Assembly (NCBI RefSeq): GCF_050920415.1
Contig: NZ_CP169309.1
DNA from: Escherichia coli
GTDB lineage: Bacteria; Pseudomonadota; Gammaproteobacteria; Enterobacterales; Enterobacteriaceae
Length of the DNA: 64,000 bases
Strand: one strand, 5' to 3'
The notes beneath the pieces were generated by a model. That model searched no databases. It had not been told where the DNA came from and saw only the letters and a list, made by a program, of their open reading frames with translations. Each line of letters starts with the position of its first letter. The first letter of the stretch is position 1. Positions 2,737 to 23,592 of this stretch are shown piece by piece. Position numbers and translations under genes: made by a program.

Positions 2737-3123
2737 TTACATCCTCCTACTCTTACCGATCCATAGTCCGGCGTGCGCGGTGGCTTCGGGATCTGCCGGG
2801 ATTAGTTCGGCTGTGCAATTATGTTTGTCAATTGAACGAAGCAACGAGCAAGCTGCCTTCCATCTTTTATTAAAATCGACATAGCGGTAGGACTGGCTCG
2901 CGCCGTTCGGCCCTGTCTGTGAGGAAATGTATTTATCAGCCTGAGTTAGTCCTAACAGGCCAATGAGATAAAGCTGAATTAATGTTGCAGTGGAGGCCGG
3001 ATAATTGGCATCAAGGCATTCGTTTACGCTATTAGCCTGCTCCACCAGCAAAGATAAGATAATGTCTGGCAGGTCAATACCCTGGCTTTCAAGATATTCC
3101 CGTGCCTGTTCTGTAGTGACCAT
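2737..3123 (-). CDS. phage head-tail connector-like protein
   Basis: ORF starting MVTTEQAREYL with a GGAG SD, immediately downstream of the capsid-gene terminator. Confidence 0.35.
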   Translation of the reverse strand: MVTTEQAREYLESQGIDLPDIILSLLVEQANSVNECLDANYPASTATLIQLYLIGLLGLTQADKYISSQTGPNGASQSYRYVDFNKRWKAACSLLRSIDKHNCTAELIPADPEATAHAGLWIGKSRRM

Positions 3124-3141
3124 TTTGTTTGCTCCACATAC

Positions 3142-3169
3142 AAAAAAAATCCCCGGCATTGCGCCGGGG
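3142..3169 (-). terminator. rho-independent terminator after the major capsid gene
   Basis: Minus strand CCCCGGCGCAATGCCGGGG hairpin followed by T8. Confidence 0.6.
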
Positions 3170-3189
3170 AGTTACAGGAAACGTTCTAA

Positions 3190-4245
3190 TTAAGATTTTT
3201 TACCGTAAACGACACCGGAACGGCCTAACATGTCGCTGGTGATCTGTAAGCCTTCTGCTGACATGATGCGGAAGTTGTAGTTATCGGTAGGCATGAGGCG
3301 CGGTAGCGGAACTACACCAGTAGTCATACCGATCAGCGGGGTAATCACTGATTTCTGGCGCTGGTAAGCGATGAACTCGTTACCTTTCAGTGCGAAGGTC
3401 TGACGAATTTCACCAACCGGGATGTACGGTTTAATTACATCCAGGACGCGACCAACAACCGCACCATTAACGACGTGAGGCGCGGCAAGGTTAGCCATGA
3501 TTTCAGGGGATACCCACATAACATCGTATTTAGCTACGAAGTTGTTGCGGGCCAGAGTACCGAAAGCGCCAGTAGTAAAGAATGCGATAATTTCCTGGAA
3601 GGTCATCGTAGTGAGATCTTCATTGGTCATCTTTAACTGCTGGGTATTGCGGTGATTTTTGATACCCTGTGCTTTTTTGCCTTCAACGACGATACGGTCG
3701 CTCCCTTCAAGGTAGAAGCGAACACGTTCTTTGTTGAATTTTTTCAGTTTCAGGCGCTGGCTATCCAGAGCAAGGTCGACACCAACGGTGTTTAAACCTG
3801 CTGCGTGACGCCAGTTAACCCCGTAACCTGCCGTGAACATCGGAATCGGATCGCCATCGCTACCGTATTCAGTATGATCGAAGCCATGAGGGGCTTGACC
3901 ATCCATAGAAATGACGACTTCATCATTGATGTCACCTGCTACGCTGTACATTTTCAGTGTTTTACCGATTGGCAGTACAGTCTGCACCCCCATCAGGTCG
4001 TTTACGATCTCGATACCAATTTCTTCGGTGTTTAGTTCGATGATCTGGTTGTCAATTTCCTGCCAGAACTCACGGGCAAAACCGCCAACGGCGTTACATG
4101 CCAGCATTTCAGGGGTCATATTGGCACGGTTAGCAGCAATCATAGAATCATGCTGCTGATTAAAGATGTTACGTTGCGCCCACATTTCTTGCCAGTGACT
4201 TTGCATACGGGCGTTAGTAGCAAGGTTTTCCCTAGTAAAATACAT
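3190..4245 (-). CDS. major capsid protein
   Basis: 351-aa ORF downstream of scaffold/decoration-like genes and followed by a strong attenuating terminator. Confidence 0.5.
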   Translation of the reverse strand: MYFTRENLATNARMQSHWQEMWAQRNIFNQQHDSMIAANRANMTPEMLACNAVGGFAREFWQEIDNQIIELNTEEIGIEIVNDLMGVQTVLPIGKTLKMYSVAGDINDEVVISMDGQAPHGFDHTEYGSDGDPIPMFTAGYGVNWRHAAGLNTVGVDLALDSQRLKLKKFNKERVRFYLEGSDRIVVEGKKAQGIKNHRNTQQLKMTNEDLTTMTFQEIIAFFTTGAFGTLARNNFVAKYDVMWVSPEIMANLAAPHVVNGAVVGRVLDVIKPYIPVGEIRQTFALKGNEFIAYQRQKSVITPLIGMTTGVVPLPRLMPTDNYNFRIMSAEGLQITSDMLGRSGVVYGKKS

Positions 4246-4260
4246 TATGTATACCTCTCG

Positions 4261-4683
4261 TTATGCAATACGGACGCGAATAAAGTCAACTTCTCCCAGG
4301 GTTACGTTTTCCTGGCAGTAGGCGACAGCAATTTCAGGTGTTTCTGCTTCTGCATTAACCAGACGGAAGCCAGTTGCATCAATGGTGATAGCTGCGTCTT
4401 TGACGTAATCGCCAGCCGGGAGACGGATTGCGAACTCACGCCCCTCTTCCATGTAGTCAGCGACCATCATTTCATCTTTTGCGATCTTGTCACCAATGCC
4501 TTTACCCTGGTGATAAGCAGGCATAGCAACATATAAACGACCTTCTCCTTTGGTTGCCGGAGTGAATTTGCCGTTAGCGATAACAACAGGTGCGCCAGGT
4601 TGAACGTCAGCGGCTGCTAGATAGCTTTCGGTAATGGATTTACCGTCAATATTTACACGACGAAAACGAAACATTGTTATCAC
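4261..4683 (-). CDS. phage head structural protein (decoration-like)
   Basis: 140-aa ORF between the scaffold-like and capsid genes. Confidence 0.35.
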   Translation of the reverse strand: MITMFRFRRVNIDGKSITESYLAAADVQPGAPVVIANGKFTPATKGEGRLYVAMPAYHQGKGIGDKIAKDEMMVADYMEEGREFAIRLPAGDYVKDAAITIDATGFRLVNAEAETPEIAVAYCQENVTLGEVDFIRVRIA

Positions 4684-21308: not shown

Positions 21309-22067
21309 TTAGTCCGGTAAAACGCGGTTAAGCGTAGTCCGCGTGATGGCCCGGTCGTTAGCCAGGAATACAGCACGGGCGAAGCCGCGCGGCGTTAGTG
21401 ACCGGATCATCTTTGTTCGCTTTGCCCGGCCTCCGGTTTTCGCCCACCCAGGGTTATCACCAGAGTTAAGATCTACAGGTCTAAAAATCGGCTGTTTAAA
21501 TCCGTTGCCGCACCAGATGCAAGTTTTCTTCGTGTACGCGTCGCGCGCCGGGTAAACATCCGGGAAAGCAGGATGCTTGTCATCTTCCGGCAGATAGCCA
21601 CCGTAAGCGCACGGATTGAAGATAAAATCTGGTTTACGCCATAACGTTGACAGTGCTCCTACCGGATTTTCCACCATCCACGGGACGTTATACATGTCAG
21701 CCAGTGTTTCGACCAGTTTCGCGTTATATGCCGCCTTCACCTGGAAGTCAGGATCTTTTTCACGCTTGCTGGAGAACCAACGAGCGCCGGACACGGCGAG
21801 ATCGTCGCATGGTGGGAAGGCAAAAATAATGTCAGGATCTGGATAAACAGACAATTCAGGGGAGAATATTACCAGGAAATGGCTATCAATCCAGACATTG
21901 ACATATTCAATATTGGGATGAATTACTTTTACTCCGTCATAATCCCCGTGATTAGCGCCGTCATAGTTGAAGCAATAGCACTTATATCCAGCTTCAGCCC
22001 AATCTTTAACGGCGTACCCGCTGCCATCGTAAAGCGACCATACCACCCAATTTTTAAGACTGCTCAT
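21309..22067 (-). CDS. DNA cytosine-5 methyltransferase-like protein (compact, PCD variant)
   Basis: 252 aa with motif I-like LYDGSG, motif IV-like FPPCDDLAVSG (D where C5-MTases have Q), motif VI-like ENPVG. Confidence 0.45.
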   Translation of the reverse strand: MSSLKNWVVWSLYDGSGYAVKDWAEAGYKCYCFNYDGANHGDYDGVKVIHPNIEYVNVWIDSHFLVIFSPELSVYPDPDIIFAFPPCDDLAVSGARWFSSKREKDPDFQVKAAYNAKLVETLADMYNVPWMVENPVGALSTLWRKPDFIFNPCAYGGYLPEDDKHPAFPDVYPARDAYTKKTCIWCGNGFKQPIFRPVDLNSGDNPGWAKTGGRAKRTKMIRSLTPRGFARAVFLANDRAITRTTLNRVLPD

Positions 22068-22573
22068 CTTCTACCCTCAAACGTAAAATAGCGGCGCATG
22101 ATGATAGTAATCACCGTTACCGCTGCCATTTTTGAGATGAATTGCATAGCTGATATTTCAGGCATGAATGCCATAAACGATAGCGTAGGAAAAATTAACG
22201 CATCGCCAATGGCGGACGCTATATTTGCAGGCCAGCGTTTTGAATCGAAATCACCAGGTAAAACCCGGTAAACGCCGCCAGAAATAAGCGCACCGGAAAC
22301 AACCGCGACGAATGACGCGATCGCCACCATCCCGGCGTCGTAATTTATCAGCACCGTGATTGCGCCAGCGGCGGCGCATGTTGTAGCCGACCATTTCAGG
22401 CCGCCGTCATATAACAAGAAGTCACGAATCATCATATTGACGCACACAGCGGCTACCGTGGTGATCGGAATTACCCACGGGCCGCAATGGTTAACAATAA
22501 GATTAATGATCACGAAAACGGCGACATAAACGCAGGCTAATAACCTGTCAATTGTCACCTTTTCCATTTGGAT
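22064..22573 (-). CDS. integral membrane protein (4-5 predicted TM helices)
   Basis: Hydrophobic ORF between the two methyltransferase-like genes; start uncertain. Confidence 0.4.
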   Translation of the reverse strand: MQMEKVTIDRLLACVYVAVFVIINLIVNHCGPWVIPITTVAAVCVNMMIRDFLLYDGGLKWSATTCAAAGAITVLINYDAGMVAIASFVAVVSGALISGGVYRVLPGDFDSKRWPANIASAIGDALIFPTLSFMAFMPEISAMQFISKMAAVTVITIIMRRYFTFEGRR

Positions 22574-23060
22574 CATACCTCTTATCGCGAATAGCTTCTG
22601 ATCTATCAAACTTCACATTAAGCCGATTAGTGGCCTCACCGTTAAACATCACAGTATGGATTGTTTTTCCTGGAATAAGCGACGGATCCGGCCCTGATAA
22701 ATCATCGTAAAGTTTTATCCCTCCGCCAATTGGGAGATCAAAAACAGCTTGTTTCTTCCTTTGTTCTTCCTCACGCTCCGTTAATATTTGTTCAGCTTTT
22801 AGTGCGCTGTAGCTAATCAAATCGATTAACGTATCAGTAGGGTCGCTTCCATTGCTTAAAATGGCCTCTAATCGCGCTTCCTTAAGGCAAATCATTAGAT
22901 CCCATACATCAAGCGGGGTTAAATCTGCTCCCTTCTTAGCGTTGTAAATAGCGGCTATTTTTGGCGCTGATTTTTCCTCTTTTTTGTCGTAGCCGTTTTG
23001 TTTGCCTCTTTGCTCTATTGTTTCCGCTGCAAGTCTTAACAAGTCTGTTGCCTTAGTCAT
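22548..23060 (-). CDS. hypothetical protein
   Basis: Start at MTKATDLL with an AGAGGTG SD; about 170 aa. Confidence 0.35.
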   Translation of the reverse strand: MTKATDLLRLAAETIEQRGKQNGYDKKEEKSAPKIAAIYNAKKGADLTPLDVWDLMICLKEARLEAILSNGSDPTDTLIDLISYSALKAEQILTEREEEQRKKQAVFDLPIGGGIKLYDDLSGPDPSLIPGKTIHTVMFNGEATNRLNVKFDRSEAIRDKRYDPNGKGDN

Positions 23061-23592
23061 TATTCGCACCTCTTGCATATAGCTCTTTACGTGTTATCTG
23101 CGTGAAAATACATTCATGTCTGCACCGTGGATGCCAGATTAAAAACAAGCTCCCCTTATTATTCCCGCTCGCTGGCTTACCAGTAGCGGCATTAATAAAC
23201 GCCAGCCGCCCGCGCGTAATTAATCGGCATTCGTTTGCCGTCTCCACGCCGTTCATAAACCAGCCAACAGAAATGTCGGCTGGCAATAACATTACGCATC
23301 CGATATGGTTTCGGTTGTGTTCAAGCGCCGCTTTATCAACGAATGGCCCCGGATTAGAATATGGTGGATTAAGCCAGACATACTCACCAGGCATTGCCAC
23401 CGCTCCCCACGGATAATGCAACGTGTCCATTTCTTCGGTTATATATCGCGGAACTAATGCGTTTGCTTTGTTTGCCGCCACGTCCGCGACGAATTCGAAT
23501 TCCCGATCCATTCCTCTAAAAACTGGTTTTGGCGTTTGCCATAAGTCTTTTATTTCTTTCGGCGTATGGCTGCCGCCGTAATCATTTTTCAT
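23053..23592 (-). CDS. DNA N6-adenine methyltransferase (phage Dam-like orphan MTase)
   Basis: 179 aa with the catalytic NPPY motif (WLNPPYS) and Dam-family size. Confidence 0.6.
   Translation of the reverse strand: MKNDYGGSHTPKEIKDLWQTPKPVFRGMDREFEFVADVAANKANALVPRYITEEMDTLHYPWGAVAMPGEYVWLNPPYSNPGPFVDKAALEHNRNHIGCVMLLPADISVGWFMNGVETANECRLITRGRLAFINAATGKPASGNNKGSLFLIWHPRCRHECIFTQITRKELYARGANND

Follow-up and report, generated by a model that had tools for sequence, protein, structure and literature searches.

Characterised members of the small phage Dam family methylate adenine at GATC, giving N6-methyladenine. A compact Dcm-like cytosine methyltransferase has been studied in phage K42. All retron Ec86-escape mutants of this phage disrupt a 711-bp 'dcm' gene, and expressing K42 dcm triggers the retron (bioRxiv 10.1101/2023.08.16.553469). 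Liquid chromatography-mass spectrometry detected a high level of 5-methylcytosine (5mC) on multicopy single-stranded DNA (msDNA) with wild-type K42 Dcm, but not with the C82A/E128A/K175A/K176A mutant, and the K42 genome is 95.4% identical to that of KarlJaspers/Bas06 (10.1101/2023.08.16.553469). Some phages also encode homologues of the transporter YhhQ, with no correlation with phage groups (Hutinet et al. 2019, PMC6884629). Here we analysed a four-gene block at positions 21309-23592 of a 64,000-nt stretch of Escherichia coli DNA (contig NZ_CP169309.1; the whole stretch is called the window), which carries relatives of these proteins. The block very probably holds two orphan phage DNA methyltransferases dependent on S-adenosylmethionine (SAM), one for adenine and one compact, 5mC-forming enzyme for cytosine, in the delayed-early region of an mEp021-type phage.

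The candidate cytosine enzyme is a 252-aa protein. It was 62% identical over 234 residues (E 3e-106) to the product of KarlJaspers bas06_0055, a 711-bp gene encoding 236 aa, which carries C82, E128, K175 and K176. These residues align with C87, E133, K180 and K181 of the window protein. A family member with reported 5mC activity exists, and, as judged from the alignment, the window protein retains every residue that was altered in it. The K42/KarlJaspers Dcm (PHROG 757) and the window protein share compact size, the catalytic Cys, the Glu of the ENP motif, the KK pair and the C-terminal RSLTPRGFARAVF, and both are orphans encoded in a phage early region. They differ in the residue after the catalytic Cys (PCD in the window, PCT in K42/KarlJaspers) and in the tail, which is about 15 residues longer in the window protein. 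The setting is also different: the window gene belongs to a temperate mEp021-type phage, where a VUT-like transporter gene immediately precedes it, and K42/KarlJaspers is virulent and T1-like. By analogy with K42, the compact family would consist of genuine C5-cytosine methyltransferases with intact catalytic residues, and 5mC formation by the 252-aa enzyme is likewise predicted from the literature on its 62%-identical relative.

A first-pass annotation of the block had described the 252-aa protein as C5-methyltransferase-like, with PCD replacing the PCQ of motif IV, and this description was borne out. The segment FPPCDDLAVSG occupies residues 84-94 and contains Cys87 and Asp88. An ENV-type Glu of motif VI is present in Glu133-Asn-Pro, followed by Lys180-Lys181 and by R222-x-x-T-P-R-G-F-A, which resembles motif IX. 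The protein matched phrog_757 ('DNA methyltransferase') over residues 4-245 (2.4e-87). Its homologues number 2783 in 90%-identity clusters and form 1251 clusters at 50% identity. Of 50,697 phage genome records, 1521 (~3%) carried the gene, among them T1-like Drexlerviridae, Webervirus, Dhillonvirus, rV5-like Vequintavirinae and RB49.

Conservation was counted in 115 diverse family members. The motif IV nucleophile Cys87 (in P85-P86-C87) is kept in 105 of them, Glu133 in 110, Asn134 in 103 and Pro135 in 113; the window protein reads E133-N134-P135-V136. At least 90% of the members share Cys87, Glu133-Asn134-Pro135, Lys180 and Arg222, and the same holds for each of D176, Y178, K180, T182, W185 and P193. 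Lys101 and Arg222-x-x-Thr-Pro-x-Gly-Phe-Ala are further conserved positions. In the region of motif I, the SAM-binding loop with the pattern FxGxG in C5-methyltransferases, the window protein has L12-Y13-D14-G15-S16-G17 where the family consensus is S-L-F-D-x-[TS]-G, and this loop follows strand E8-12 of the structural model.

The PCD variant together with the short length had been taken as a possible sign of non-canonical activity. Our results do not support this reading. In the family alignment, the catalytic Cys is followed by Thr in ~92% and by Asp in ~6% of members; Asn, Glu or Arg are rare there, and Gln never occurs. Asp88 is not restricted to the mEp021 group; it is scattered over unrelated clades (P0127, P0129, P0193, P0230, P0260 and others). 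On the sequence data, PCD is a tolerated minority variant of a family-wide PC[T/D]D and does not define a family. The short length is unremarkable because 227-235 aa is the typical length in the family, and the 62%-identical relative, with PCT in place of PCD, is reported to form plain 5mC. We also considered PCD as the mark of a special clade linked to the transporter and rejected it, as Asp88 occurs in several unrelated clades; the one Asp88 relative with recovered context (P0129) has no VUT gene. As a side observation, the Dcm-like homologue of the T1-like phage LHE71 (L010, 193-887, minus strand) was recovered by tblastn as two adjacent pieces, 627-887 and 193-606, so the gene may be frameshifted or a pseudogene, or the sequence may contain an error. 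Two hypothetical proteins are annotated there.

The AlphaFold2 model of the 252-aa protein, built from an 82-sequence alignment, had a mean predicted local distance difference test score (pLDDT) of 91.9 and a predicted template modelling score of 0.89. When the model was searched against the Protein Data Bank (PDB) with Foldseek, the catalytic domains of DNMT3A and DNMT3B came out on top (E ~7e-7). In the model comparison the scores were 14.7 for DNMT3B, 12.8 for DNMT3A and 11.8 for HhaI. The predicted structure is a class I methyltransferase fold with C5-methyltransferase topology. The first-pass annotation had found no obvious target-recognition domain (TRD), which holds for the large variable TRD that canonical enzymes carry between motifs VIII and IX. 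It missed a compact and highly conserved segment of ~65 aa (residues ~150-215), which fills this place and is well ordered (pLDDT 96-98). In the model this segment is similar to the short TRD found in DNMT3 enzymes, the best structural matches. Identity between the DNMT3A/DNMT3B catalytic domains and the window protein is only 11-17%, and the window protein lacks PCQ, the regulatory domains and a known DNMT3L-type partner. Compared with the PF00145 enzymes (M.HhaI, M.HaeIII and E. coli Dcm), the window protein fails the hidden Markov model (HMM) and is ~100 residues shorter. The canonical Gln after Cys becomes Asp or Thr in the compact family, and the conserved mini-insert replaces the variable TRD.

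Several results weigh against the assignment of a 5mC-forming enzyme. The 252-aa protein had no match in Pfam even at E<=10. Among 82 family members, none reached PF00145 at E<=0.001 and only 4 did at E<=0.1. Queried with the single sequence or the family profile, the PDB returned chance matches only. When the family profile was aligned with M.HhaI by hhalign, motif IV alone was aligned, with C87 on Cys81 and a non-significant E of 0.15 (the M.HhaI sequence was verified against 10mh_A). The evidence for 5mC comes from a single preprint and from over-expression (10.1101/2023.08.16.553469), and it was obtained with a PCT relative, not with an Asp88 (PCD) enzyme. For K42 Dcm, the target CCWGG was assumed from E. 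coli Dcm, and the assays were done in dcm+ MG1655 (10.1101/2023.08.16.553469). Nor did restriction resistance among Drexlerviridae relate in any simple way to these methyltransferase genes in the BASEL study. The NCBIfam search also gave no match for the 252-aa protein, and in the PADLOC scan it matched no model, those for Type II methyltransferases included. Homology to the canonical C5-methyltransferases is therefore argued for by the predicted structure and not by sequence, where it is marginal.

Our literature search found no measured target sequence for the compact Dcm-like family. In the K42 study, the retron was not triggered by the host Dcm of dcm+ MG1655, and the authors mention that the phage enzyme itself is toxic (10.1101/2023.08.16.553469). 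Together with the assumed CCWGG assignment, these observations suggest that the targets of the compact family may differ from CCWGG or extend beyond it.

The other methyltransferase of the block had been recognised as Dam-like with an NPPY motif, and the profile searches agreed with this. The 179-aa protein scored 141.5 bits against TIGR01712 (phage N-6-adenine-methyltransferase, an equivalog model with a curated cut-off of 97.05) and matched positions 1-167 of the 169 positions of PF05869 (3e-51). It falls in phrog_111. NPPY is located at residues 75-78 and fits the catalytic motif (D/N)PP(Y/F). Set beside the small phage Dam family (PF05869/TIGR01712), the window protein is a full-length match above the cut-off with no notable difference, and its sequence marks it as an ordinary small phage Dam-family N6-adenine methyltransferase. 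The best PADLOC model for it was 'orphan methyltransferase' (4e-24). It was the only protein to match any PADLOC model, and PADLOC gave no restriction partner. No restriction gene was found among the neighbours either, so the description of both methyltransferases as orphans is supported. The anti-restriction strategy that had been read from the two orphans is probably right, although the role itself is an interpretation.

The block is made of four overlapping open reading frames (ORFs) on the minus strand, of 179, 176, 181 and 252 aa (Table 1). The stop of the Dam gene overlaps the likely start of the DUF6378 gene (ATG 23060) by 8 nt, and the membrane protein gene and the 252-aa gene share ATGA (a 4-nt overlap). 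A terminator-like hairpin lies 13 nt past the end of the 252-aa gene and closes the block; a terminator (TERM_4) is annotated at the equivalent position in phage mEp021. The ratio of nonsynonymous to synonymous substitution rates (dN/dS) against mEp021 was 0.04 for Dam, 0.20 for DUF6378, 0.03 for the membrane gene and 0.06 for the Dcm-like gene. These ratios (0.03-0.20) indicate purifying selection on all four, and as each also has many homologues, they are real genes.

Table 1. Predicted features of the four-gene block (window coordinates) and of the VUT-DpdA loci in other phage contigs (contig coordinates).
Feature	Coordinates	Strand	Evidence or source
Phage Dam N6-adenine DNA methyltransferase, 179 aa	23053..23592	-	TIGR01712, PF05869, phrog_111
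DUF6378 protein, 170 aa from ATG 23060 (ORF to 23078, 176 aa)	22548..23060	-	DUF6378 7e-8
VUT/YhhQ-like multi-pass membrane protein, 181 aa	22064..22609	-	phrog_4899
Compact Dcm-like C5-cytosine DNA methyltransferase, 252 aa	21309..22067	-	phrog_757
Intrinsic-terminator-like hairpin, 16 pairs, then T-run	21296-21261	-	consensus scan; TERM_4 in mEp021
VUT-DpdA locus, L005	4004-5229		
VUT-DpdA locus, L006	4004-5307		
VUT-DpdA locus, L010	3004-4307		
VUT-DpdA locus, L011	3001-4301		
VUT-DpdA locus, L012	2989-4285		
VUT-DpdA locus, L013	3016-4274		
VUT-DpdA locus, L014	~3001-4265		
VUT-DpdA locus, L015	2282-3474		

The DNA of the block is 87-91% identical to the temperate coliphages mEp021, mEp010/013/044/515/554 and MagusPhagus. 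There, the four genes are flanked by the recombination genes (erf, ssb, abc2) on one side and by NinF/NinG/RusA/Q on the other. The block occupies the delayed-early nin-like region upstream of NinG/RusA/Q, and it reads leftward in window coordinates, which agrees with the early-operon setting proposed before. The four-gene block is not new; it has already been annotated along the same lines in mEp021 and RefSeq.

Starting from the observed fold, catalytic residues, family membership and purifying selection, a mechanism may be proposed, in which the target sequences, the expression timing and the anti-restriction role are what we infer. Both methyltransferases would mark phage DNA before packaging. 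NPPY of the 179-aa enzyme would bind a flipped-out adenine, whose N6 would then be methylated, and GATC is its likely target if it behaves as the characterised members of its family do. In the 252-aa enzyme, Cys87 would attack C6 of a flipped-out cytosine and Glu133 of the ENP motif would protonate N3. The methyl group of SAM would go to C5, and beta-elimination would free the 5-methylcytosine. The position of Asp88 would be a tolerant one, occupied mostly by Thr in this family and by Gln in the canonical enzymes. The short conserved insert with Lys180/Lys181 may substitute for a large TRD, as in the DNMT3 enzymes. The expected outcome would be protection from methylation-sensitive restriction, and the cost would be detection by defences of the retron Ec86 type.

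Two further genes had been noted between the methyltransferase genes, one of them for a multi-pass membrane protein, and we found them as described: a DUF6378 protein and a VUT/YhhQ-like membrane protein. The DUF6378 protein probably starts at the ATG at 23060, because its homologues have 170 aa. Its N-terminal domain is helical, and its tail is variable and disordered. R18, G19, N22, G23, Y24, D25, E29, K60, R63, D76, D80 and E90 are invariant polar residues of the N-terminal domain, a pattern that hints at an enzyme or a ligand-binding site. The AlphaFold2 model was mediocre (pLDDT 62), the PDB profile search gave no match and the fold search gave no useful information. We had expected a MazG-like nucleotide pyrophosphatase, but no support for such a fold was found. 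The PHROG name 'phosphofructokinase' given to related families (phrog_474, phrog_1167) looks like a misnomer, unsupported by our results. DUF6378 genes were also seen near Dcm-like genes elsewhere, at ~0.85 kb in an unrelated contig (L016) and, by coordinates, at ~2-3 kb in Dhillonvirus; the neighbourhoods were located at 3255-5324 of L016 and 3217-3516 of L018.

The membrane protein matched phrog_4899 (1.3e-46), and mEp021 annotates a 170-aa version with a start equivalent to 22576. Its match to Pfam Vut_1 was weak (E 0.4), yet it ran from end to end (6-149 of 152). Among the nine aligned PHROG 4899 members, four matched Vut_1 at E<=1e-3, with a best E of 1.2e-9, and because of these members the protein was assigned as a putative YhhQ/VUT-type transporter. 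PHROG 4899 unites the window protein with the VUT proteins of PEAT2, Opt-719, LHE71 and other phages, the YhhQ/VUT preQ0 transporters paired with DpdA (PMC6884629). Several of these proteins reach Vut_1. Their phages have a DpdA gene right next to the VUT gene, whereas no DpdA was found in the window or the MagusPhagus genome. The transporter family is found in just 21 phage records. A gene for a DpdA-like 7-deazaguanine transglycosylase (PHROG 887, 'queuine tRNA-ribosyltransferase') directly adjoins the transporter in all eight loci examined outside the mEp021 group (Table 1). The mEp021 group and the window differ from these loci, and the transporter adjoins the Dcm-like gene there. A tblastn search found no DpdA in the window, and an HMM of seven DpdA sequences found none among all ORFs of the window and the MagusPhagus genome (best E 0.51).

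This arrangement raises the alternative that the four genes form one DNA-modification pathway, in which a precursor of a base or cofactor enters through the transporter and is turned by the Dcm-like protein, the DUF6378 protein or both into a product other than 5mC. The gene overlaps suggest translational coupling, and the strong constraint on the transporter (dN/dS 0.03), its regular place beside the DNA-modifying DpdA in the other loci, and the closeness of a DUF6378 gene to a Dcm-like one (within ~1 kb) in an unrelated contig all point the same way. The order Dam-DUF6378-VUT-Dcm is also kept in a relative at just 50-65% amino-acid identity. However, this relative shares the NinG/RusA/Q synteny as well, and common ancestry may explain the order. 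The Dcm-like gene is found in ~1500 phages versus 21 for the transporter, so the enzyme can do without it; K42 Dcm made 5mC by itself in E. coli; and no known chemistry joins a 7-deazapurine transporter to a C5-methyltransferase. We regard a single pathway as improbable. A functional dependence of the Dcm-like enzyme on the transporter is also unlikely, because the Dcm-like gene is about 70 times commoner and the K42 enzyme worked alone.

Other explanations concern the product of the 252-aa protein. The Asp88 clade might have changed its cofactor or product, for example to a carboxymethyl group from carboxy-SAM, as in phage CmoX, or to another C5 adduct. This is very unlikely: the CmoX determinant is an Arg replacing the Asn of motif X, not the residue after Cys, Asp88 is spread over several clades while the family is uniform in other respects, and apart from Asp88 the active-site signature matches that of the 5mC-forming K42/KarlJaspers enzyme exactly. 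No CmoA- or ligase-type partner is annotated among the neighbour genes. Methylation of RNA (m5C in tRNA, as by Dnmt2) in place of DNA seems extremely unlikely, since the DNA enzymes scored higher in the model comparison given above and the homologue methylated the DNA part of msDNA. The chance of an inactive remnant or of an unrelated fold, which the first-pass annotation had kept in view, is practically negligible. The lack of any sequence match in Pfam, NCBIfam, PADLOC or PDB would agree with it, but the high-confidence model has a C5-methyltransferase fold, the catalytic Cys and Glu are conserved, dN/dS is 0.06 and the full-length gene is kept across thousands of phage genomes; no sign of decay or of another fold was found.

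The reading as two orphan methyltransferases can be taken one step further, in a speculative and on balance unlikely form. The compact family may be DNMT3-like with a short or relaxed target, and not a CCWGG 'Dcm', and it may have taken the slot of DpdA beside the transporter in mEp021-type phages. If this is true, the transporter has a second role in infection that is independent of DpdA, or a conserved 'anti-restriction slot' exchanges unrelated DNA-modifying enzymes.

Since the compact family already has a characterised member in K42, the finding itself is ordinary, and its value lies in the annotation gap and in the assumed target specificity. Pfam, NCBIfam and PADLOC all miss a family present in ~3% of phage genomes, and its members are often called 'hypothetical' in RefSeq, so that annotation can be improved. 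Orphan methyltransferases affect how therapeutic or temperate phages cross the restriction barrier. According to one preprint (10.1101/2023.08.16.553469), they are also what retron Ec86 senses.

The block was found in 34 of 5426 complete E. coli genomes, chromosomal in every case, and the best match among them was only 94.4% identical. RefSeq labels the products 'phage N-6-adenine-methyltransferase', 'DUF6378 domain-containing protein' and, for the membrane gene, 'hypothetical protein'. The RefSeq/PGAP label of the 252-aa protein varies with the E. coli genome between 'DNA cytosine methyltransferase' and 'hypothetical protein'. By gene order against MagusPhagus and mEp021, the window from ~1 to 38000 is an mEp021-type (mEpimmI group) prophage, with structural, lysis, Q, nin-like, recombination and immunity/replication modules in this left part. 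The GC fraction is ~0.44-0.49 up to ~38 kb and ~0.50-0.57 after it, and positions 38000-64000 are probably host chromosome.

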